A program made the translations under genes and the position numbers. From Bacteroidota bacterium (GTDB lineage: Bacteria > Bacteroidota > Bacteroidia > Bacteroidales > PUMT01), in the NCBI GenBank assembly GCA_003551495.1, contig PUMT01000022.1:1-52944 (forward strand): DNA of 52,944 nt, written 5' to 3'. Below the pieces are notes generated by a model, which did no database searches, had not been told where the DNA came from, and was given only the letters and a program-made list of their open reading frames with translations. The stretch's first letter is position 1; each line of letters starts with the position of its first letter. This document shows positions 42,454 through 52,944 of this stretch, piece after piece.

Positions 42454-42676
42454 ATTTGTTATATTTTAATTGATTAAAAATAAATTGCAAAATCAAACCA
42501 CAGAAGTCTGGAAAAATTCTCCCAAAATTAAGAAAAAAAAATCCAAAATCAGACAGCCGGACTGTTCATTCGTTCCGTTTAGCGGAACAGTCTAATAACC
42601 ACATGGTAAACGGCTATTCTCAAAGGGCAAATGGTTTTTCTGAAAAAGAGCCGCCACTTCTTTTACCGGACGATTG

Positions 42677-44008
42677 TCATCGGGCACGATGTCTCAGGAG
42701 ATGTCTGAGAGGACTTACCATTCTTTGGAGCAGGCTCAGATCATCGGTTGATATTTCGGCTGTTCCTGTAAGTTCACGTATTACATCTATTTCATAGCCA
42801 TAGGATGTAACCGGACCATTGGTAAGATCCAGAACAGCCGGGAATCCCGTTTCAAGCGGGCCGCTGGAAATAGAGTGAACCCTTGCTTCAATCATCCCGA
42901 ATTCCATATATGGATAGCCGTCCAGTTTTATATTGACAATTTGTCCGGGTCTTACCTTCCCTGCCCCCCTGTGCGGCAATATAAGTCGCGCATGAAGCTC
43001 CCCCTTATCTTCCGGCACAACTGAAAAAACGGGGTCGCCTTCCCTCACTTCCTGCAGGACACTCCAGATCATTACATAATTCAGTATCCCGTCAGTTGAA
43101 GAAACAACAAGATATCTTTTTTCCCATGCAGAAACTGAGCTTTCAAGTTGCCTGAGGGCATTTACAAGACCGGTTACCAGATCCTGTCTCCTCTGCTCCT
43201 CCTCCATCCTTGTATCGGTAATGGAGTGTCTCAGTCTTGCAATAGTTACTGCTGTATTTGAAAGTGAGAGCCTTGCCGATTCAACAGCCTGCTCTTTTTC
43301 CAGAAGTGAAGAGCGTGCTTTTTCGAAGTCAGATGTAGATATAACACCCGTAGAATAAAGTAATGAGTCTCTTCTGAACTGGCTCCTGGTAAGCTCAAGA
43401 TCGGTCAGTGCCAGATTTTCCTGTGATTCAAGTACCCTGAAATACTGTTCATACTCCTTCAGTTCTTCTTCAAGAGCATTGATCTTCCTTTTGTAAAAAT
43501 CCTGTGATTCAAAAATATTGAAATCATTTACAGTTTTAACGAGTTGGTTATAGTAAGGCTGAATCTCGCCAAGTACAAGGTCGCGCGGAAAAGTGAACCC
43601 TTTAAAATACTGTTCCGGACTGCCGTTGTTATTAACTTCCTTCAGAATATCAAGTAACCTGAATACATCCCTGTGGCGTGCAGGATTTTCGATAACAGCC
43701 AAAGTATCGGAATACTTAACAAAATCCCCGTCTTTCCTGAAAATAGTTGTAAGCCTTCCTGTTGAGCGGGCTGTAATAACTGACGGAGGATTTTCAGTGG
43801 TAATAATGACCGGGGCGGTTACAATATCTGGATAACTGAAAACTCCGCTACCGGCAAGTATAATAACCACAACTGCAAACATCACTCCGATACCCGACCT
43901 TACAAGCCAGCCGGGTGGAGTTCCCATTATATCCTGTACCTCTTCCGACCGGATCGATATCTTTTCAGCTTTCCTTTTCAGGCTTTCATCATCAGTTTGC
44001 CTTTCCAT
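42677..44008 (-). CDS. HlyD-family type I secretion adaptor
   Basis: RSEEVQDIMGTPPGWLVRSG, single TM, long coiled coil, GAGKVRPGQ.V.IKLDGYPYMEFG; adjacent to the PCAT. Confidence 0.92.
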   Translation of the reverse strand: MERQTDDESLKRKAEKISIRSEEVQDIMGTPPGWLVRSGIGVMFAVVVIILAGSGVFSYPDIVTAPVIITTENPPSVITARSTGRLTTIFRKDGDFVKYSDTLAVIENPARHRDVFRLLDILKEVNNNGSPEQYFKGFTFPRDLVLGEIQPYYNQLVKTVNDFNIFESQDFYKRKINALEEELKEYEQYFRVLESQENLALTDLELTRSQFRRDSLLYSTGVISTSDFEKARSSLLEKEQAVESARLSLSNTAVTIARLRHSITDTRMEEEQRRQDLVTGLVNALRQLESSVSAWEKRYLVVSSTDGILNYVMIWSVLQEVREGDPVFSVVPEDKGELHARLILPHRGAGKVRPGQIVNIKLDGYPYMEFGMIEARVHSISSGPLETGFPAVLDLTNGPVTSYGYEIDVIRELTGTAEISTDDLSLLQRMVSPLRHLLRHRAR

Positions 44009-44042
44009 CAGCCGTTACAAATTTCAGGTTATAAATAGTTTA

Positions 44043-46235
44043 TCACAGTTCAAGCTGGTTCTTTACCAGTGTATAGTATGCTCCCTTTTTACGGGCAAGT
44101 TCTTCATGTGTGCCGGTTTCTGCAATTTCACCTTTTTCAAGTACAATAATGCGGTCGGCATCTTTGACGGTGCTGAGCCTGTGCGCAACAACAACTACTG
44201 TTTTCCCCCTGAAAAATTCATTGAGGTTTTCCATAATTATCTTCTCATTATTTGCATCAAGGGCATTTGTCGCTTCATCAAAAAAGATGTATGCCGGATC
44301 CTTATAAACGGCTCTGGCGATCAGAAGCCTTTGTTTCTGCCCTTCACTCAGTCCATGTCCTTCACTGCCGATTTTGGTGTTGTACCCCAGGGGAAGTTCT
44401 TCAATAAAATCGGATATATTTGCCGTTTTTGCAGCATTGAGCAGCCTCACCTTGTCTATTCTCTCTTCGCCTGGAGCTATGTTGTTTGCAATGGTGTCGG
44501 AGAAAATGTAGCCGTCCTGCATAACAACCCCGCAATTCTTTCGCCACATACGTACACTGTAAACATCCAGTCTGCTGCTGCCCAGCCTTATCTCTCCTTT
44601 CGCAGGTGGATAGAACCCAAGAAGGAGCCGGATAAGGGTGGTTTTACCGCTACCGGATGTTCCAACAATAGCAGTCTTTTTGCCCCCTTCCAGACCGAAT
44701 GATATATTTTTCAGTACCATCTCTGATTCAGGGCCTTCATACTGAAAAGAGACCGATTCGCCCTCCAGGGATGTCTTAGCGGGGATCTCGTGTGCCTTAG
44801 CCTCACCTGAATCCTCTTCATCCGGACGGTTGTGAATTTCACCAAGGCGTTCCAGACTGATCTTTGCATCCTGCGTGGTATTGAAAAAGGTTATAATCTG
44901 TTCTATGGGACTGTTAAGCTGACCTATAATATACTGAACGGCCAGCATCATACCGAGTGTCATTGTACCTTCCACAACTGCAGTTGCAGCAATAACTGTA
45001 ATTACAATATTTTTCATCTCATTGAGGACAAGTGCGCCCGATTGCTGATACTGCCTCAGAGCCAGTCCTTTCACCCCAATCCTGAAAAGTCTGGCACGGA
45101 TTTGTTCCCATTCCCATCGTTTCTGTTGTTCGCATCCCTGCAGCTTTATCTCCTGCATCCCTTGTATAAGCTGGATGAGGTTACTCTGGTGGGCTGATTG
45201 TTGTGCAAACCTTTTGTAATCCAGCTCGGCCCTTTTTTTCAGGAAGATCCAGACCCATGCGGCATAAAGGATGCTTCCTGCAAAAAATATTGCAAATATC
45301 AGACGGTTATAGTACAGCAGTACCAGTCCGAACACCACAATATTAACCAGTGAAAAAAGAATTCTCAGTGTTGTCCCGGTAAGGAATGTTTCTATTCTCC
45401 TGTGATCTCCAATACGCTGCATAAGGTCACCGGTAAGCTTGGTGTCGAAAAACCTCATGGGGAGCCTCATCAGTTTAATGAGAAAATCGGAAATAAGTGA
45501 TATATTCACCCTGACCCCGATATGAAGGAGGATCCAGTTCCTTATAAAATCTACAGATGCCCTGCTTAAAGTAAGTACAAGCTGTGCGATAAGGACAAGG
45601 TAAATAAAGCTTATATTCTGGTTGCCGATACCGTAATCAACAATACTCTGGGTGAGAAAAGGGAATATAAGCTGCAGCAAGCTTGCCAGCAGAAGTCCCA
45701 GAAAAAGCTGTATCACCAGCTTCCTGTAAGGTGTAAGATATGAAAAAAGAAAAGAAAAACTTGCCTTGTTTTTCCGGTCATCCTCAGCCGCATGGAAGTC
45801 GGGTGTAGGTTCAAGAAGCAGTACCACCCCTTTCTCTTCTCCTTTTTCCTTTGTGGAAGCCCAGCACCGCATGAACTCTTCCCTGTTGAACCGTACCAGT
45901 CCACCCGCAGGATCAGCAACATGTAAAATTTCCCTGCCTTTTTTACCGGTGATCTTGTGTAAAACAACAAAATGATCCTGGTTCCAGTGAATAATTGCAG
46001 GAAGGCGTGCTTCTCCTGCGAGCTGATCAAATGTAAGTTTGACACCAAGTGTTCTGAAGCCGATACTTTCGGCGGCCTGACTAATGCCAAGCAGGCTCAC
46101 TCCTTCACGGGTAATATAACTCCTGTCTCTCAGGGTAGACAATGAATAGCGTTTACCGTAAAAAGCGGCCACCATTCTCAGGCAGGTAGGACCGCAATCC
46201 ATGGCATCTGGTTGTCTGTAATGCGGAAAAGCCAT
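44043..46235 (-). CDS. Peptidase-containing ABC transporter (C39 + TMD + NBD)
   Basis: QPDAMDCGPTCL (catalytic Cys14), HWNQDHFVV (His), ADP (Asp); Walker A GTSGSGKTT, LSEGQKQR, FFDEATNALD, VAHRLST. Confidence 0.96.
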   Translation of the reverse strand: MAFPHYRQPDAMDCGPTCLRMVAAFYGKRYSLSTLRDRSYITREGVSLLGISQAAESIGFRTLGVKLTFDQLAGEARLPAIIHWNQDHFVVLHKITGKKGREILHVADPAGGLVRFNREEFMRCWASTKEKGEEKGVVLLLEPTPDFHAAEDDRKNKASFSFLFSYLTPYRKLVIQLFLGLLLASLLQLIFPFLTQSIVDYGIGNQNISFIYLVLIAQLVLTLSRASVDFIRNWILLHIGVRVNISLISDFLIKLMRLPMRFFDTKLTGDLMQRIGDHRRIETFLTGTTLRILFSLVNIVVFGLVLLYYNRLIFAIFFAGSILYAAWVWIFLKKRAELDYKRFAQQSAHQSNLIQLIQGMQEIKLQGCEQQKRWEWEQIRARLFRIGVKGLALRQYQQSGALVLNEMKNIVITVIAATAVVEGTMTLGMMLAVQYIIGQLNSPIEQIITFFNTTQDAKISLERLGEIHNRPDEEDSGEAKAHEIPAKTSLEGESVSFQYEGPESEMVLKNISFGLEGGKKTAIVGTSGSGKTTLIRLLLGFYPPAKGEIRLGSSRLDVYSVRMWRKNCGVVMQDGYIFSDTIANNIAPGEERIDKVRLLNAAKTANISDFIEELPLGYNTKIGSEGHGLSEGQKQRLLIARAVYKDPAYIFFDEATNALDANNEKIIMENLNEFFRGKTVVVVAHRLSTVKDADRIIVLEKGEIAETGTHEELARKKGAYYTLVKNQLEL

Positions 46236-46370
46236 TTATCAGGATAATATGCTAAATAATTGACCTGCTAAATATACTCAGGTATTTTTGAAAAATCCAA
46301 TAATTAAGAAATAAAAGTGTTTTAAGTCCAATAAACTTAACGTTTATTATTTGGTCAAGGAAAGCTAAAG

Positions 46371-46466
46371 AAAAAAAAAGGCTGCCGTGCACACTTTGAT
46401 AAACTCGGGCGAGTTTTAACTGACGGAAGACAACTCATGGAAATGGCGTGTGACGGCAGCCTTTTT
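46371..46466 (-). terminator. Long hairpin with U-tract between the kinase gene and the PCAT; possible terminator or structured RNA
   Basis: aaaaaggctgccgt(g)cacac ... gtgtgacggcagccttttt enclosing about 55 nt that contains an inner aaactcg/cgagttt hairpin. Confidence 0.6.
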
Positions 46467-46492
46467 AACCAAAAAGAAAAAAAGAACTCTTG

Positions 46493-47317
46493 TTACATTG
46501 CAATATGTTTTCTGGCTGAAACACCAAGCCTGTAAAACCTTTCTATTAAAGTACCATTTGTTTTCAGGGGCAGGGAAAAATAGAGTGCTGAACCGTTATA
46601 ACTTTCCGATTCGGTCCAGAACCTGCCGTTCATTATCTCAACAATACTTCTGGCAATTGTCAGCGGCAAGCCTCCGCTTTCAGGGTGGCATGAATATTCT
46701 CCCCCACCGTTGTATGATTTTGTTTCCCCGTTCATTTCACATCTTTTCCCTGAATACCTTACAAAGAAGCGCATAGTGCCGCCATCTTTGCCAAACCCGA
46801 ATTTAACATATCCTTCGGGAGTATTTCTTACAGCACATTCTATAAGATTCCGCATTGCGGATTTAAGCCGGTTTTTGTCAGTTATCACATTTGAGAGGTT
46901 TACATTCCCCCTGCATGGAATAAGGTTGAGCTTTTTGGATTCAACTGCTTCGCAATTTTTATATTCAATGTATAGTTCATCCACCATTGAATTCAGGCAA
47001 AGCTTATCCTTTTCAAGTTTCACCTTGCCCGATTGCAGCAATGTGAGGTCAACCATATTGTCAATAAGCCTGAGTAACAATTCGCTGTTTTCATTGATGT
47101 GGCGGACAAACTCCTTTTTATCCTCCGCACCCAGCTCATCGTCTGCAAGCAGATTTGCAAACCCCACTATGGCATTCATAGGAGTTCTGAGTTCATGTGA
47201 CACATTTGACAAAAAAAGCGTCCTGATAGAGTCAAACTGCCTGTTTTTCCGCTCAAGATCCTCCTTCAGCTCCCTTATTGCCGACAACAACTTTCTATTT
47301 TCATTGAAATAACCCAT
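46493..47317 (-). CDS. Sensorless histidine kinase-like protein with degenerate HATPase domain
   Basis: Intact H-box FLSNVSHELRTPMNAIVGF; N-box reads NLIECAVRNT, G1 reads YSGKR, G2 reads SGGLPL. Confidence 0.85.
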   Translation of the reverse strand: MGYFNENRKLLSAIRELKEDLERKNRQFDSIRTLFLSNVSHELRTPMNAIVGFANLLADDELGAEDKKEFVRHINENSELLLRLIDNMVDLTLLQSGKVKLEKDKLCLNSMVDELYIEYKNCEAVESKKLNLIPCRGNVNLSNVITDKNRLKSAMRNLIECAVRNTPEGYVKFGFGKDGGTMRFFVRYSGKRCEMNGETKSYNGGGEYSCHPESGGLPLTIARSIVEIMNGRFWTESESYNGSALYFSLPLKTNGTLIERFYRLGVSARKHIAM

Positions 47318-47366
47318 AACTGGCTTTTTTTAATCTGGCCCGTTGCCAGCGGACCTTACAACAGCT

Positions 47367-48125
47367 TTAGAGAGATTCCAGGATAGAGGCGGCCCTGTTG
47401 CTGTAATACCCATCACCGTCTTTTATCCGTGTGAAATACTCCCTTGCCTTTTCGTTTTCTTCAAGTTTAACATAGCAAAGCCCTTTATACCACTCTGCAT
47501 TCTCGACAAAGAGATTGTCCCCGTGTTCAACAACATCTTCAAGTGATCCAAGTGCTTTGGCAAACTGACCGGTTTCCATATATGAAATCCCGGCATAGAA
47601 TTTTGAGGCAATGTTGTCCGGATCGTTTTCGAGCACCTCTTCAAACAATACAATTGCCGACCCGAATTCCCTGTTCTCGTATTGGAGCATGGCATTTACC
47701 ATCAATTCATCCAGTTCTGTATCACCTGAACGAACATTCATAACTCCGTCATATGTTTCATAATGCATTGAAAACAGGTCTTCTGCAGCAGGCTGGTTGC
47801 CGTAAAAATAAACTGCAGATGCAACTGCAATAAGCACCGCAACAAGCGATGCAGCAGCATACTTGATCATACCTTGGGAATAAACCCTTTCCGGTTTCTT
47901 CTTCAGTGTCCGTCGGTCACTGTCAAACAGCCTGTTCATCTGGTCGCGCAAAGCCATCACATCATCATCGAGTATTGCTTCGCTGACTTCCTGCTGCAAC
48001 CTGACCTCTTCGGAAAGACGTGGGTTTACTTCCATCTCGCCTCTGAACCACTGAAGCTCTTCTCCTTCCATTTCACCATTCAGGAATTTATCAATAAATG
48101 CCTGATAATTAAGTTCTTTTTTCAT
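47367..48125 (-). CDS. Single-pass membrane TPR protein with anti-sigma-like N-terminus
   Basis: IDKFLNGEMEGEELQWF...NPRLSEEV (zinc-less anti-sigma-domain pattern), TM YAAASLVAVLIAVASAVYFY, C-terminal TPRs (FYAGISY, AEWYKGLCY). Confidence 0.8.
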   Translation of the reverse strand: MKKELNYQAFIDKFLNGEMEGEELQWFRGEMEVNPRLSEEVRLQQEVSEAILDDDVMALRDQMNRLFDSDRRTLKKKPERVYSQGMIKYAAASLVAVLIAVASAVYFYGNQPAAEDLFSMHYETYDGVMNVRSGDTELDELMVNAMLQYENREFGSAIVLFEEVLENDPDNIASKFYAGISYMETGQFAKALGSLEDVVEHGDNLFVENAEWYKGLCYVKLEENEKAREYFTRIKDGDGYYSNRAASILESL

Positions 48126-48284
48126 TTTTGGTTGGTTTTTTTATTATAAAACATGCTAACCTGTTAAAATTTTTCAGCCTTTCAGCTTTCCTTTTTTATG
48201 CAATATTTCGCAGGATGTTTCATTCGCAAATCATTTTTTTTCTTTAGCAGACTGCCGGGTCCTCCAGGCAAGTCAACGTATGTT

Positions 48285-48494
48285 TCAATCGGGCAGCAAC
48301 ATCTGGCTCGGCCTTACATAGATCCATCTTCTGGGCTCCTCCTGTTTCTTTTCATCTTCCTCTTTTTTTTCCTCTTCTGCCTTTTTTTCCTCACCACTAT
48401 CCGTGCCGCTTGTACGTCCGCCACGTATTCTGGAAAGAGCCGCACTGTCCAGTACATTCTCTTCCAACTTTAAAAAACCTTCAATTGTTTTCAT
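48285..48494 (-). CDS. Double-glycine-leader precursor peptide 1 (26-aa leader, 43-aa core)
   Basis: Leader ...EENVLDSAALSRIRGG has L(-12), L(-7), I(-4), GG; A-rich translation initiation region; same strand as the PCAT. Confidence 0.8.
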   Translation of the reverse strand: MKTIEGFLKLEENVLDSAALSRIRGGRTSGTDSGEEKKAEEEKKEEDEKKQEEPRRWIYVRPSQMLLPD

Positions 48495-48920
48495 GGCGAA
48501 AATATTTTAGTTATTATTAAAACCGTATTTGCCGGTAACTGCAGCAAAGCCCTGTTTCAGTCCGGCACACATAGCCGCAACACGCTGATACGGATGCGGC
48601 AATCATATATGGTTTTTGAATCACTCATCTTCTGCCTTTTGCTGCAGCAAACTTCACAAATAGTGAAGATGCGTTTGCAGCTTTAAAAAACTTCAGCTTT
48701 CAACTTTGTCCCATTTTGGGCATTCCCCTGGCTGAAGGTCATTCAGTAAACCGGTGATCTATCCTCTTCATAATGCAACATTTGGCACTTGCATCAATAT
48801 TCCATCTCTTTTACCGGTTTCCTGCCGCCGTACCTTCATACGGCGGGGTTTTCCTGCCCGGGCCCTGTAATTATTACTTCAAGACACCCGGATTATATTT
48901 TAGTCTATACTGCTTATTTC

Positions 48921-49133
48921 TCAATACATACAACCTGTTTTATTTTCTTTCTCTTCTTCCTCCTCTTCTTCTTCATCTTCGTCGTCACCCGGCGGAGGAA
49001 TTATTATATCTTCATCTTCTCCGATAGGCAGTCCGTTGGTTCCGCCCCTGAGGGTGCCGAGTTCGTTGCGTGTTAAAACTGTTTCTTCAGGAAGTCCTGC
49101 CAAAAGGCTGAAAAAGTTTTTTGTAGTTTTCAT
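48921..49133 (-). CDS. Double-glycine-leader precursor peptide 2 (31-aa leader, 39-aa acidic, Pro-rich core)
   Basis: Leader ...EETVLTRNELGTLRGG has L(-12), E(-8), L(-7), L(-4), GG; paralogous to the leader of peptide 1. Confidence 0.82.
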   Translation of the reverse strand: MKTTKNFFSLLAGLPEETVLTRNELGTLRGGTNGLPIGEDEDIIIPPPGDDEDEEEEEEEEKENKTGCMY

Positions 49134-49363
49134 GACTTTAAAGTTTCAGGTTAGGTTTTATAATATTTTCAGGTGATTTTCAGCTTGGTTTTTAATCTTT
49201 GTTCATCTATAGGTGGGAAAACCTTAAATTTGTGACACGAAAAAGATCCCGGGTTTTCATTTTTTCTAAATAAGAAACTTTGTTTTTTGTTGCTTTACTT
49301 TGTTTTATGATTTATTTTCTAAATTATATTTTTTAATTTAATTTGCAGGGTTTTCTGTTTTGC

Positions 49364-49396
49364 TTTTTCGACCCAAACTAAATGCGGGTCGAAAAA
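49364..49396. promoter_or_regulatory. Perfect 11-bp inverted repeat in the divergent promoter region
   Basis: tttttcgaccc-N11-gggtcgaaaaa. Confidence 0.5.
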
Positions 49397-49482
49397 CAAT
49401 TTTCTTAACCCTGTAAGGTATTAGCTTGAAACTTAAAAAAATAAATATCGTAAAATTCAGGATATTAATCATATAAATTTTA

Positions 49483-49490
49483 TATGTTTG
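49483..49490 (+). promoter_or_regulatory. Bacteroidota -7 element upstream of the CHAT gene
   Basis: TATGTTTG(C) ending 47 nt before ATG 49538. Confidence 0.5.
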
Positions 49491-49537
49491 CCTGCAGGGA
49501 TTGCACGGTTTTATAATATAAAACTATTAAAAGTACC

Positions 49538-52342
49538 ATGCCTTCAGCAAGAGCCGGTTTCATAGCAATATTCTGGATATTGGCGGCGGTTATCTTTCAG
49601 CTGCCCGCCTATCCTGCAGTTGCTTCCGGCGACACTATTGCATCCGATTCTGCCCTGCATTTTTACAGGATTGGAATATCTCAATACAGTGAAGGGCATA
49701 ATGAAAAAGCACTTGAGTCTCTTAACAGGACACTTCAGTTCTACAACAAAAGACCCGACACAGAAGCATCTGAGATAGCAGGTGTTTACTCCAACCTGGG
49801 TGTTGTCAGCAGGGTTCTGCTGAGATACGATGATGCAATAAGGTATTACGACACAGCACAGGTGATTCTGGAAGAGAATTTCGGGACAGATCATATAAAC
49901 CTTGGGGTGGTTTACCAGAACCAGGGGAACATATACAGGGAGGGACGCGACACCCCGAGAGCCCTTCAGCACTATTACAGGGCTCTGGCAATTTTTGAAA
50001 AACATGAGGGCATTCCTAACTGGCTTGCTTCCCTTTACAACAATATTGGATTATCTTATCTCGATACTGAAGAGTATGAAACTGCAATAAATTATTTTGA
50101 AAAATCTCTTGAACTCAGAAGAAAGCATCTGCCCCATGCTATAAGGACTCCTGCAGGGAACCTGGCAGTAAGCTACTATTACCTGGGAAACGAGGAAGAG
50201 TCCTCCCGCTATTTTGAAATGGCCTTGCAATCGACCATTGAGCACCGGGGTAAACTTTATCCCGGACTGGCAAACAACTACCTGAATTACGGCCTTCTCT
50301 TTGCAAGTGTTTCTCTCGATTACGGGAAAGCTATGGAGATGTACGAAAAAGCACTACACATCTTCGAGCACCACTTCGGCGAAAGAAATCCGGGCAGGTC
50401 TCGAGCGCTGATGAACATGGGGGGAGTTTACGAAATGCTCGGCAACTACCGAACAGCTATGGATTATTACCAGGAATCGCTTATTGCCATAAGCAGCTCA
50501 TTTGAATCCTCCTCCTGGGAGGACAATCCCGGAATAGAAAGCGCCCTGTCGTATACATACCTCTACGAAACACTGAGCAGGAAAGCCAATGCTTTGAAGG
50601 AACTGGGACTGGAAGAGGGAAATACCAGGAATATAAGACTGAGTCTTGAGACATACGACAAAACATTACGTGTACTTGAAACCATGAGGATGGGATACCA
50701 GACCGAAGAGAGCCGCCTGCACCTCTCCCAGAGTGAAAGCGACATATATCCGAAGGCAATAGATGCAGCATACCATATGTACAGGAAAACGGGTGACGAA
50801 ACTTATATCGAAAAAGGGTTCAACTTTTCAGAGCGCAGCAAGGCAGCTGTCCTGCTGGCCTCAATGAGAAATATTGAAGCACTTGAATTCGGAGGTGTGC
50901 CGCCTGAACTAAGGGAAGAGGAAGAAGGCTTGAAAAGGAGCCTGACAGCCTACACCGAACTTATTTACGAGGAAAGACAAAGGGCAAGGCCAAACGAGCA
51001 AAGGATCACCAACTGGGAAGAGAGAATATTTGAATTAAACCGGGAACTGGCAAGGCTTACTGAATTTCTGGAAAAAGAGTACCCAGACTATTACAACCTT
51101 AAATATGATCCCCGTTTCGTCTGCATAAGTAAAGTCCGTTCCGGTATGGCCCGGAGTGAAACCCTCCTTTCATACAGCATAAACGACTCTGTGCTGCACA
51201 TTTTTGTTGTAAACAGGAACGGCACACACTGGGAAGAAGTGCCTCTCCCCTTCAACCTTGAAGAAAAAGTCAACTCCTTTCTGGGGTTGATGAACTTCAA
51301 TTCGCTGTCAACCGATGCAGGAAACAATTTCAGGGCATTTTCAGAAATATCACATTTGCTTTACAGTATACTGGTACAGCCGGTAAGTGAAATTATCAGA
51401 GGCAGGAACCTCATTTTTATTCCCGACGGGGTTCTTTCATACCTTCCCTTTGAACTGCTCACAGTCAACAATGAGCCACACTCGGGAATAAACTTTGCAG
51501 CGCTCCCCTACCTGCTCAGGGAGCACCCTGTAAGTTACGCTTATTCTGCAACAATATGGACTGAAACACTAACCCACGAGATCAGTCCCAATAAAGACCT
51601 TATAGCTTTCGCTCCATACTATGAGATGGCCACCGGACAGGATACTGACAGTCCGGCCAGGGGTTATCGCAACAAACTCACTCCCCTGCCTGGTGCAAGG
51701 GCGGAAGCAAGGGCAGCTGCAGAAATATTCGGGGGAAAAGCCCTTTTTGACGAAGATGCATGTGAAGCAAATTTCAAGAGCATTGCAGGGGATTACCGGT
51801 TTATACACCTTGCTATGCACACGGTTATTGACGATGATGACCCCATGTTCTCCAAGCTGGTCTTCACGGATACCGGCGGAGAGTCAGGCGAAGATGACAT
51901 GCTCAATACACATGAGATATATAACCTCAGACTGAATGCGAGACTGGCAGTTCTAAGCTCCTGCAACAGCGGATACGGGAAATTGCAAAAGGGAGAGGGT
52001 ATAATGAGCCTTGCACGCGGTTTCCTTTTTGCAGGAGTGCCCTCGATAGTAATGACATTCTGGGAGATCGAAGACAAGTCGGGTGTAGACATAATGAAAA
52101 GGTTCTACCACCATCTTGGCAGGGGGAAGCGTACTGATGAAGCGTTAAGGCTTGCACGGCTCGAATTTATTGAGAACTCGGACATGCTTAGGTCACATCC
52201 CTATTTCTGGGGAGGCTACGTGTGCATAGGCAATCCAAGGGAGGCGGTCGCAACCGCACGTATCGTTCATACTGCCGTCATTGCTGCAGTTATAATTCTG
52301 GCACTGGGAATAACCTGGCTTGCAAGGAGGAAAAGAAAGTAA
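49538..52342 (+). CDS. TPR-CHAT (caspase-like, clan CD) protease with signal peptide and C-terminal membrane anchor
   Basis: Signal peptide, multiple TPRs (YSNLG, YQNQG, YNNIG, YLNYG, LMNMG), SERSKA, IPDGVLSYLPFE, IHLAMH (His761), VLSSCNSG (Cys809), HPYFWGGY, terminal TM followed by RRKRK. Confidence 0.93.
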   Translation: MPSARAGFIAIFWILAAVIFQLPAYPAVASGDTIASDSALHFYRIGISQYSEGHNEKALESLNRTLQFYNKRPDTEASEIAGVYSNLGVVSRVLLRYDDAIRYYDTAQVILEENFGTDHINLGVVYQNQGNIYREGRDTPRALQHYYRALAIFEKHEGIPNWLASLYNNIGLSYLDTEEYETAINYFEKSLELRRKHLPHAIRTPAGNLAVSYYYLGNEEESSRYFEMALQSTIEHRGKLYPGLANNYLNYGLLFASVSLDYGKAMEMYEKALHIFEHHFGERNPGRSRALMNMGGVYEMLGNYRTAMDYYQESLIAISSSFESSSWEDNPGIESALSYTYLYETLSRKANALKELGLEEGNTRNIRLSLETYDKTLRVLETMRMGYQTEESRLHLSQSESDIYPKAIDAAYHMYRKTGDETYIEKGFNFSERSKAAVLLASMRNIEALEFGGVPPELREEEEGLKRSLTAYTELIYEERQRARPNEQRITNWEERIFELNRELARLTEFLEKEYPDYYNLKYDPRFVCISKVRSGMARSETLLSYSINDSVLHIFVVNRNGTHWEEVPLPFNLEEKVNSFLGLMNFNSLSTDAGNNFRAFSEISHLLYSILVQPVSEIIRGRNLIFIPDGVLSYLPFELLTVNNEPHSGINFAALPYLLREHPVSYAYSATIWTETLTHEISPNKDLIAFAPYYEMATGQDTDSPARGYRNKLTPLPGARAEARAAAEIFGGKALFDEDACEANFKSIAGDYRFIHLAMHTVIDDDDPMFSKLVFTDTGGESGEDDMLNTHEIYNLRLNARLAVLSSCNSGYGKLQKGEGIMSLARGFLFAGVPSIVMTFWEIEDKSGVDIMKRFYHHLGRGKRTDEALRLARLEFIENSDMLRSHPYFWGGYVCIGNPREAVATARIVHTAVIAAVIILALGITWLARRKRK

Positions 52343-52344
52343 TA

Positions 52345-52944
52345 TCACACTTCATCGTCCCTCCTCTCTTTCATTATTCTTTTGAACTCCTTGTCATTTT
52401 TTATATTCTTCATCAGATGCCTCCAGCAGAGATACTTTTTTCTCCGGGCATAGCCGGAACTTCCATAACCCATCTTAAAGGCAATATGGTCATAGCTGTG
52501 TTTTCTGTAAAACATTGTAAGCACCTTTTTACAGTCAAATGCCAGATTCCGGTAATGCCTCTGGTAAATTTTTTCTTTTCTCAGGTATGCATCTCCCCTT
52601 GCCGGTGCATCAATCTTGCCTTCAACCTCCCTCTCTTCTGCAAGCGGTTCCTCAACACTGCCTTCCAGTTGCCCCTTAAGTTTATTGCGAGTTGCCGAAT
52701 CGGAACCCTTTGTGTCATACCAGAGGAACCTGCACATTACAAGGAAATATGAGGAAAAAGAAGCCTTAATATGCAGTTTGCCTTCGCGTAACTTTTTGAA
52801 TACGGAAATTACGGCATCCTGGAAAAGATCCCGTGCATCCTGCTCGTCGCCTTCATTATCCTTCACAAACTTCAGAACGGCGGGGAAGTACCTGCTGTAG
52901 ATATACTCCAAAACATCATTGTCCTTGTGGCGAATTCCATATAA
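52345..52944 (-). CDS. ECF-type sigma-70 factor (5'-truncated by the window edge)
   Basis: Frame stays open to base 52944 (LYGIRHKDNDVLEYIY...); region 2 DARDLFQDAVI, region 4 CKKVL..FY..HSYDHIAFKMGY...ARRKKYLC. Confidence 0.88.
   Translation of the reverse strand, partial: LYGIRHKDNDVLEYIYSRYFPAVLKFVKDNEGDEQDARDLFQDAVISVFKKLREGKLHIKASFSSYFLVMCRFLWYDTKGSDSATRNKLKGQLEGSVEEPLAEEREVEGKIDAPARGDAYLRKEKIYQRHYRNLAFDCKKVLTMFYRKHSYDHIAFKMGYGSSGYARRKKYLCWRHLMKNIKNDKEFKRIMKERRDDEV

Follow-up and report, generated by a model that had tools for sequence, protein, structure and literature searches.

A proposed peptide autoinduction circuit with a split CHAT/anti-sigma pair and an ECF sigma factor as output in Bacteroidota

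What do two small peptides with double-glycine (GG) leaders, a peptidase-containing ABC transporter (PCAT), a TPR-CHAT protease and a sigma factor of the extracytoplasmic function (ECF) type do together in one gene cluster? The question is raised by contig PUMT01000022.1 of a Bacteroidota bacterium (assembly GCA_003551495.1, a 2.9-Mb draft genome that is 94% complete); the window analysed here is the entire contig of 52,944 bp. A preliminary description had proposed that the exported peptide binds the TPRs of the CHAT protease, which then cuts an anti-sigma factor and releases the sigma factor to drive the peptide and exporter genes. Family searches and translations located all eight genes that it had named at the positions it gave. 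With modest confidence, we favor the reading that the cluster is a self-contained peptide autoinduction circuit with the ECF sigma factor as its output. The features involved are listed here in order of position.

42677..44008, minus strand: HlyD-type periplasmic adaptor, 443 aa, the last gene of the operon (Pfam HlyD_3, E 8.3e-8)
44043..46235, minus strand: PCAT, 730 aa, with the C39 domain at 45858-46226 (Peptidase_C39 3e-30, ABC_membrane 8e-30, ABC_tran 9e-30)
46493..47317, minus strand: soluble histidine-kinase-like protein, 274 aa (HisKA 1.8e-16, HATPase_c 1.7e-8)
47367..48125, minus strand: candidate anti-sigma factor of 252 aa with one internal transmembrane (TM) helix and matches to TPR families, hereafter TM-TPR
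48285..48494, minus strand: pep2, GG-leader precursor of 69 aa, read from the sequence as a leader (1-26) ending in IRGG and a core of 43 aa
48921..49133, minus strand: pep1, GG-leader precursor of 70 aa, likewise read as a leader (1-31) ending in LRGG and a core of 39 aa
49211..49258, minus strand: ECF-type promoter-like motif GAAAAC-N15-TGTCAC-N-CCCAC, about 80 nt upstream of pep1
49538..52342, plus strand: TPR-CHAT protease, 934 aa, with the CHAT domain at 51350-52234 (CHAT E 3e-58, TPR_12 1.8e-37)
51818-51820 and 51962-51964, plus strand: H761 and C809, the catalytic dyad of the TPR-CHAT protease, assigned by alignment
52345..52944, minus strand: ECF-type sigma factor, its 5' end lost at the contig end (Sigma70_r2 E 1.5e-6)

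Six of these genes form a head-to-tail series on the minus strand (49133 to 42677), in the order pep1, pep2, TM-TPR, kinase, PCAT and HlyD. The TPR-CHAT gene lies on the plus strand and diverges from pep1. The layout given in the preliminary description holds as to the genes present, but the sigma gene converges on the 3' end of the TPR-CHAT gene and does not adjoin the TM-TPR gene in this genome, and the supposed window edge is the end of the contig. Since the window is the whole contig, the sigma gene is truncated by the contig end and not by the choice of window; as judged from the orthologue at the same-genus locus L013, it lacks about 7-10 codons.

The expectation that these genes would be found together in other genomes was borne out, the cluster being shared by many Bacteroidota of marine and sediment origin. 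A scan of one genome per species returned 573 CHAT relatives, and the locus analysis was carried out on the best 80 by CHAT likeness, which come from Marinifilum, Labilibaculum, Ancylomarina, Prolixibacter, Sunxiuqinia, Lentimicrobium and many uncultured Bacteroidales. Of the 19 other genomes of the family, 17 have CHAT orthologues with E <1e-100, and the two without one are 85% and 74% complete; several further families of the order have orthologues as well. Across the family, synteny holds for the sigma, CHAT, peptide, TM-TPR and kinase genes. At the first 17 loci compared, CHAT is accompanied by a sigma gene in 16, TM-TPR in 14, a kinase in 10 and a PCAT orthologue in 6; two of the three loci missing TM-TPR are contigs that end there. 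Hidden Markov models built from these first loci were applied to 37 well-flanked loci (at least 4 kb to the left and at least 2.5 kb to the right of CHAT), where TM-TPR was found in all 37, sigma in 36, the kinase in 24, a GG peptide in 24 and a PCAT within 10 kb in 9. In one genome, two contigs (L024 and L109) carry diverged paralogous copies, each with sigma, TM-TPR, CHAT, GG peptide, PCAT and HlyD.

A GG leader is a short N-terminal segment that terminates in GG and is hydrophobic at positions -4 and -7 and acidic at -8, and the peptides were judged by these features. By this definition pep1 fits fully, and pep2 carries Ala at -8; NCBIfam and Pfam peptide models matched neither. The pep1 core is strongly acidic and contains the family motif of three acidic residues followed by I-I/L-I/L-P, and pep1 is 82% identical to its L013 orthologue over 49 aa. 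The pep2 core is charged and ends in LLPD, its C terminus resembling the family core motif; no pep2 orthologue was found in L013. All 12 family loci have one to three small open reading frames (ORFs) between CHAT and TM-TPR, with leaders ending in (N/S)-(A/S)-I-R-G-G and cores containing D-E-D-I-L-(I/L)-P-D, often followed by an acidic tail. Across the 80 loci, 78 GG-leader ORFs fall within the 106.5 kb of diverging strand immediately upstream of CHAT, against 19 in 2384 strand-kb elsewhere, an enrichment of about 90-fold; the leader pattern misses three further peptide copies in L060. At least one GG-leader ORF is present in 43 of the 64 loci with at least 400 bp upstream of CHAT, and in every peptide-bearing layout the peptide genes sit closest to the CHAT gene. 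The 63 unique precursors share the leader consensus E-(L/M)-x-x-(I/V)-(K/R)-G-G and have cores of 7-38 aa (median 16), which are net negative in 59 and free of Cys in 55. Cores are clade-specific; that of Marinifilum has 12 aa, ends in E-D-I-L-V and occurs in 4-5 tandem copies. In Marinifilum as well as Labilibaculum, the peptide genes are amplified into 3-5 tandem units, nearly identical and each about 168 bp long (L074:8900-9700, L056, L078, L080 and L089), and the second peptide core of the L024/L109 pair is proline-rich.

The PCAT, the candidate exporter of these peptides, carries a Peptidase_C39 domain at residues 4-126 with its Cys (in DCGP) and His (in HFVVL), followed by the ABC membrane and nucleotide-binding domains, and it is the sole C39 match genome-wide. 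PCATs cleave GG leaders and export the peptide. The adjacent HlyD gene, whose product matches NCBIfam type_I_hlyD with E 2.5e-23, under the model cut-off, comes after the PCAT gene in L013, L015, L024 and L109 as well. No homologue of LanB or LanC was detected in this 94% complete genome by tblastn with a positive control, and pep1 is the only match to the strict leader pattern in it; the single PCAT thus appears, on this sequence evidence, to be dedicated to pep1 and pep2. A cluster for ribosomally synthesized and posttranslationally modified peptides (RiPPs), that is, a precursor together with LanB/C/M, a radical SAM enzyme or YcaO, was not found in the window. The lack of lanthipeptide, radical-SAM and YcaO genes claimed earlier was upheld for the ORFs of at least 120 aa in the rest of the window. 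A maturase just past the edge had been named as a finding that would account for the PCAT and peptides in another way; none is encoded in the flank beyond sigma in L013, which corresponds to the region past the contig end. We rejected the RiPP reading on the absence of a maturase from the window, from the L013 flank and, for LanB and LanC, from the genome, together with the Cys-free cores.

The peptide genes also share a promoter-like motif. In all 12 family loci, the block GAAAAC-N15-TGTCAC-N17-(C/T)AC lies ahead of the first peptide gene. When 44 loci were subjected to a Gibbs search, a wider form emerged, G-G-G-T-n-A-C-C-T-T-T-T, about nine bases, then C-G-G-A-A, located 42-128 nt before the ATG. 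With its AAC-type -35 and CG-type -10 elements, the motif looks like an ECF promoter. The exact IUPAC form has 31 matches in 27 of 120 loci, nearly all of them at peptide genes, where a rough estimate of the chance expectation is far below one match. It also stands directly upstream of the sigma gene in L056 and, in the peptide-less L064, upstream of the kinase gene and of a gene pair encoding a type IX secretion system (T9SS) protein and CHAT. In L095, the peptide and TM-TPR genes are duplicated in tandem as a unit, with the motif upstream of each copy. A general scan for sigma-70 promoters and terminators was uninformative (25 promoters where 16.7 were expected, and 9 terminators where 11.2 were).

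Genome-wide, the motif matched 4 times in Marinifilum flexuosum (reversed control 0), 5 times in Labilibaculum (control 2), once in Ancylomarina (control 0) and not at all in Prolixibacter (control 2). Five genomes of the sister genus together gave 11 matches against 0 in the reversed control, one per peptide locus; their other sites precede a small helix-turn-helix (HTH) gene. In Marinifilum and Labilibaculum, the motif precedes orthologous genes for a 982-aa T9SS-sorted C25 (gingipain-family) peptidase (L114 and L115), and further extra sites precede lipoprotein operons. A Labilibaculum locus (L116:141-7389) has the motif followed by a small HTH gene, a GG precursor, LanC, a split LanB and a PCAT orthologue. 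In these other genera, where the motif stands before genes for a secreted gingipain-like protease and a small HTH regulator and before a lanthipeptide cluster, the circuit would control exoproducts. HTH-like proteins of 65-85 aa are encoded directly behind the motif in two distant clades (L121, L123 and L126; L116:202-399); the one copy scanned, that of L116, had no Pfam match, and the protein may be a second-tier regulator.

The sigma factor belongs with the ECF (group 4) proteins, which have regions 2 and 4 only and about 170-220 aa. Its Sigma70_r2 match is at 28.3 bits against a cut-off of 24; the NCBIfam sigma70-ECF score of 34.7 bits is under its cut-off of 42.9. Over both regions, a profile of 29 orthologues aligns with solved structures of SigW, SigH and RpoE, SigW being the best match (positions 10-178 of 191, E 5e-7). 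In the sister genus, the sigma gene is preceded by a TTTG...TAnnTTTG promoter of the housekeeping type.

TM-TPR is a candidate anti-sigma factor by its architecture and gene context. Class I anti-sigma factors have a helical N-terminal domain for binding the cognate sigma factor and one TM helix, and their genes are coupled to those of the sigma factors. It consists of an N-domain (about residues 1-85), a TM helix (about 89-107), a conserved juxtamembrane stretch and a 3-TPR domain, and a single internal TM helix is present in all 13 proteins examined. Basic residues ahead of the helix place the N terminus inside, so that a cytoplasmic N-domain and a periplasmic TPR domain are predicted. Many relatives have the two genes on one strand, TM-TPR overlapping or abutting sigma, in the classical sigma/anti-sigma arrangement. 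The N-domains have one recurrent Pfam match, to zf-HC2, which is weak and seen in 11 of 37 (best E 8.7e-4), and the window's own N-domain does not match it. The juxtamembrane motif, hydrophobic-F/Y-x-x-Y-Y-x-P-Y ... R-S-G, is conserved in all 66 TM-TPR proteins listed. It does not co-vary with the type of peptide core, as a pseudo-substrate might; the stretch is the same across clades, including peptide-less ones. Some loci have two TM-TPR paralogues, one linked to sigma and one to the kinase. The window's gene belongs to the kinase-linked clade, which a midpoint-rooted tree, indicative only, nests among the sigma-linked ones.

The TPR-CHAT protein has an N-terminal signal or anchor, about seven kinesin light chain (KLC)-like TPRs, the CHAT domain, and a C-terminal TM helix with a basic tail. 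PF12770 matches across 286 of 289 positions, and H757, H761 and C809 are invariant in 78 sequences, in agreement with the earlier naming of C809. It is the only CHAT match in the genome. Because an N-terminal hydrophobic segment is present in 76 of the 78 orthologues and the C-terminal TM helix with its basic tail in all 78, the body of the protein should be periplasmic, and we predict it to be membrane-anchored there. Both this body and the TPR domain of TM-TPR would thus be within reach of an exported peptide. The CHAT TPRs have a weak match to AimR (E 0.0017, below cut-off), and the full CHAT profile matched only TPR proteins in sequence searches of the PDB.

The nearest characterized parallel is the Myxococcus DdvA/DdvS system, which, according to passages of PMC11506125, comprises an ECF sigma factor and an anti-sigma factor fused as anti-sigma domain (ASD), TM helix and periplasmic TPR-CHAT. 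The same passages propose that CHAT autoproteolysis in the juxtamembrane linker of DdvA precedes cleavage by RseP, and they describe the signal as unknown but thought to be phage-derived. The cluster shares with it the ECF sigma factor, a single-pass anti-sigma candidate with a cytoplasmic N-domain, and periplasmic TPRs with a CHAT His-Cys dyad. The site-1 cut proposed for the DdvA linker, followed by RseP, fits the stretch conserved in TM-TPR. There are also differences from the system as those passages present it. DdvA is one protein, whereas the functions are divided here between two genes, ASD-TM-TPR and signal-TPR-CHAT-TM. The CHCC zinc site of the DdvA N-domain has no counterpart here, where the N-domain is devoid of a Cys/His zinc motif. 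The phage-derived signal considered for DdvA contrasts with a self-made, exported and genetically linked peptide, and its CBASS/CRISPR regulon with a cluster in which no defense genes were seen. TM-TPR and TPR-CHAT are therefore not members of the DdvA type, given the separate genes and the missing zinc motif, but by analogy they may work in the same way.

The proposed circuit would run as follows. pep1 and pep2 would be made with a GG leader, which the C39 domain of the PCAT would remove, and PCAT and HlyD would export the peptide. The acidic core would build up outside the cytoplasm and be sensed by the periplasmic TPRs of TPR-CHAT, of the anti-sigma candidate or of both, the two proteins acting as a two-protein receptor that is a split form of the fused DdvA. 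By analogy with DdvA, peptide binding would activate or reposition the CHAT His/Cys site, leading to a cut in the conserved juxtamembrane stretch of the anti-sigma factor. A site-2 protease of the RseP type (M50), for which there are four Peptidase_M50 matches in three ORFs of the genome, would complete the cleavage and free the sigma factor. The freed sigma factor would then read the promoter observed before pep1 and transcribe the pep1-pep2-antisigma-kinase-PCAT-HlyD operon, closing a positive loop; in other genera, the circuit would also control exoproducts, as quorum sensing does. The CHAT TPRs as peptide receptor, CHAT as the protease that cuts the anti-sigma factor and this sigma factor as the reader of the motif promoter are candidate assignments. 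The circuit proposed in the preliminary description has thus kept its conserved gene set and its lack of a maturase, and has gained a motif promoter, the overlap of the TM-TPR and sigma genes in relatives and a predicted periplasmic topology.

Several observations weigh against this reading. In each of three genomes of this genus, ours and two others, the motif has a single copy, at the peptide operon; relaxed searches allowing up to 4 mismatches found no further copy in our genome, and motif searches revealed no target beyond the peptide operon itself. The kinase, moreover, is degenerate in this genus. The N-domain profile of TM-TPR had no PDB match to anti-sigma domains, and neither the CHAT-domain protein nor its profile matched a PDB entry, including DdvA, craspase and separase; the likeness to DdvA is consequently one of Pfam family and architecture only. 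Since the loci were selected for CHAT likeness and are related to one another, the counts given above are not independent. The modules are also separable. Lentimicrobium-type loci retain sigma, anti-sigma and CHAT genes without a GG peptide, and one such genome (G045) has no PCAT orthologue; in the peptide-less loci, a gene for a T9SS-sorted protein of about 400 aa occupies the place of the peptide genes upstream of CHAT. Two genomes (G022 and G026) have a CHAT orthologue without a PCAT at E 1e-100, and three others (G036, G038 and G039) have PCAT orthologues without CHAT.

The T9SS-sorted protein of about 400 aa has CarboxypepD_reg/SdrD_B, dockerin-like and T9SS C-terminal sorting domains (L064:8219-9454, L086:8147-9364, L097 and L022). 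Searches of our own genome found no homologue of the small HTH gene and no C25 peptidase, the latter a weak negative, as the controls of that family search matched nowhere.

One alternative, which we regard as unlikely, is that the peptides are exported products, for example unmodified bacteriocin-like or surface-active peptides, and not signals, and that the sigma/anti-sigma/CHAT module senses another cue, such as envelope stress, a competitor or a phage, and turns on their production. PCAT and HlyD with GG peptides form the standard layout for bacteriocin export, and in Labilibaculum a class I lanthipeptide cluster with this promoter type in front of it includes the PCAT orthologue; a phage cue is also what DdvA is thought to sense in the passages of PMC11506125. 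The cores are nevertheless short, down to 7 aa, mostly net negative and mostly Cys-free, unlike cationic amphipathic class II bacteriocins, and no immunity gene is present. PADLOC system models matched none of the eight proteins, save for generic ABC-ATPase and TPR matches, and the peptide genes are those closest to CHAT in all layouts that have them.

Another alternative, to which we would also give little weight, keeps the circuit and assigns the protease a different job: the TM-TPR anti-sigma factor would itself be the peptide receptor, and TPR-CHAT would trim the acidic tail or destroy the signal. Small 3-TPR domains that clamp acidic C termini are an established mode of binding, as in Hop with EEVD. 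In several layouts, the peptide genes are directly upstream of and co-directional with TM-TPR, with which they form the tandem unit of L095. Some cores stop after the hydrophobic-P-D end and others have long acidic tails, so that the tail looks dispensable. Marinifilum-type cores, however, are just 12 aa long and terminate with the motif, so that no tail is left to be trimmed, and the CHAT gene stays beside sigma and anti-sigma in peptide-less loci. The fused DdvA, as presented in passages of PMC11506125, also suggests that CHAT and anti-sigma act on each other.

A regulator of anti-phage or stress defense of the DdvA kind, with target genes elsewhere and the peptide module as an accessory, seems to us very improbable. 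Its appeal is that the only studied CHAT-type anti-sigma factor controls a CBASS/CRISPR island, according to passages of PMC11506125. Yet the window and the flanks of the relatives showed no defense genes, the neighbors being housekeeping genes; PADLOC made no system match, and the motif sites elsewhere stand before lipoprotein operons, a lanthipeptide cluster and genes for a protease and an HTH protein, not before defense systems. The reading of the locus as a defense island was rejected. That the PCAT/peptide unit and the sigma/CHAT unit are unrelated chance neighbors is scarcely credible and was rejected, for, although the two modules occur separately in some genomes, the local enrichment of GG ORFs beside CHAT, the common promoter type, the two paralogous full sets in one genome (L024 and L109) and the single co-directional array of peptide, anti-sigma, kinase, PCAT and HlyD genes here all speak against it.

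The autoinduction circuit can also be set beside other systems. Streptococcal ComC/ComAB/ComDE and BlpC/BlpAB/BlpHR use a membrane histidine kinase as receptor together with a response regulator. The likeness lies in an unmodified GG peptide that is cut and exported by a PCAT and autoinduces its operon, and, in some carriers, in the control of bacteriocins, to which the Labilibaculum lanthipeptide cluster may be compared. By contrast, the kinase here is soluble, sensorless and degenerate, and the output is an ECF sigma factor behind an anti-sigma/CHAT pair in a diderm periplasm; with a degenerate ATP site and no response regulator found in the cluster by Pfam scans, two-component peptide quorum sensing of the Com, Blp or Agr kind does not describe the locus. 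The RRNPP regulators (Rap, NprR, PlcR, PrgX and AimR) have TPR arrays that bind short secreted peptides, but they are cytoplasmic and depend on peptide re-import and on HTH or phosphatase outputs, none of which was seen here. RseA/DegS/RseP likewise joins a periplasmic peptide-like cue to a site-1 cut of a single-pass anti-sigma factor and an M50 site-2 protease, genes for the latter being present here; the site-1 candidate of the cluster is, however, a caspase-fold CHAT and not a PDZ serine protease, and the cue would be a dedicated secreted peptide and not the tails of misfolded porins.

Type III-E craspase (Cas7-11, Csx29, Csx30 and CASP-sigma) is cytoplasmic, RNA-guided and CRISPR-bound. 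The protease here is predicted to be periplasmic and membrane-anchored, no Cas gene is present among the scanned ORFs of the window, and with no PADLOC system match either, the locus is not a craspase of this type. The likeness is that activation of the TPR-CHAT protein is proposed to free sigma through cleavage of its inhibitor, as related in passages of PMC11506125. The actinobacterial group ECF54 has CHAT, subtilase and carboxypeptidase neighbors by synteny (passages of PMC8999054 and PMC7826278). It resembles the cluster in having a conserved CHAT protein beside an ECF sigma factor with proteolytic control proposed (PMC8999054, in part); it differs in phylum and sigma group and is said to have no anti-sigma factor, and the passages concerned give no link to a peptide or PCAT.

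The preliminary description had known of no characterized system with this layout. Coupling of CHAT to a sigma factor outside type III-E craspase is already in print, since DdvA/DdvS has been characterized (passages of PMC11506125), whereas the link to an exported peptide appears to be absent from print. Full-text searches found nothing that connects GG peptides or a PCAT with an ECF sigma/anti-sigma/CHAT module, and no such peptide circuit for Bacteroidota. CHAT is not mentioned in the main text of the ECF re-classification (PMC7826278), whose supplementary group tables may list this sigma group and its neighbors. By term search, the passages of a paper on RiPP mining in Bacteroidales (PMC10352776) and of a review of noncanonical ECF factors (PMC8999054) contain no such link beyond the ECF54-CHAT synteny. 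The cluster reads as a variant of two known themes, peptide autoinduction and CHAT-type anti-sigma signaling.

It is possible, and we put this forward only tentatively, that Bacteroidota of the Marinilabiliales/Bacteroidales lineages possess a new type of peptide quorum sensing in which an unmodified acidic GG-leader peptide, exported by a PCAT, is read in the periplasm by a split DdvA-like pair of TPR-CHAT protease and TPR anti-sigma factor, and in which the sigma factor freed by proteolysis autoinduces the operon and turns on exoproducts (gingipain-like protease, lanthipeptide and a secondary HTH regulator). Peptide-based cell-to-cell signaling is largely a Gram-positive theme. If true, the circuit would supply the first defined ligand class for CHAT-type anti-sigma factors. 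The candidate ligand is encoded beside its receptor in 1 to 5 copies and is short enough for synthesis, and the carriers include the cultivable hosts Marinifilum, Labilibaculum, Prolixibacter and Ancylomarina. TPR gating of a caspase-fold protease and its feeding into regulated intramembrane proteolysis thereby become directly testable, and clade-specific cores with a dedicated sigma factor and promoter would offer orthogonal peptide-inducible switches.

All four sequencing runs listed hold DNA from salt-lake metagenomes, one probably being the source sample; no RNA data set was among them. On the left of the cluster, genes for pyruvate-phosphate dikinase and PEP carboxykinase flank the HlyD gene, and a family scan of ORFs of at least 120 aa identified the remaining genes as housekeeping. 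Rfam had no match across 42500-52944. Between the two peptide genes lies one further feature.

48495..48920, minus strand: structured spacer of 426 nt between pep1 and pep2 (RNA fold z -3.66; 0/100 shuffles fold as well)

This spacer is richer in GC. It could serve as an attenuator or a processing site, or it may be a remnant. Other loci show additional genes. In the sister genus, kinase and PCAT are separated by an insert of 4.5-6.5 kb that encodes a second ECF sigma/anti-sigma pair and DUF6249 as well as an S9 prolyl oligopeptidase and an esterase. In L013, that second sigma pair and DUF6249 are found beyond sigma, along with an MscS channel gene and housekeeping genes. This second ECF sigma factor (regions 2 and 4), its partner of 140-150 aa and the DUF6249 membrane protein accompany the locus on opposite sides in L013:3727-5203 and L015:11886-13408. 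Two Ancylomarina loci (L045 and L070) have two tandem TPR-CHAT paralogues behind one pair of peptide genes. Between genera within the family, PCAT identity is 76-92%, compared with 38-73% for CHAT, 41-67% for TM-TPR, 27-53% for the kinase and 37-62% for sigma.

The kinase has no TM segment and no sensor domain; it retains its H-box and has lost the N-box Asn and the G1 box of the ATP site. In an alignment with 22 relatives, the boxes are degenerate here and in L013, L021, L041, L043 and L050 and canonical in most relatives, including the sister genus and Marinifilum. The term degenerate kinase, used in the preliminary description, is therefore right for the ATP site of this protein but applies only to this genus and a few lineages. 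The C-terminal tail of the kinase, (K/R)-(K/N/H)-I-A-(I/L/M/S), is conserved over distant clades (46493-46520 on the minus strand here; L013-L021, L056, L074 and L080) and could be a degron or a docking motif.

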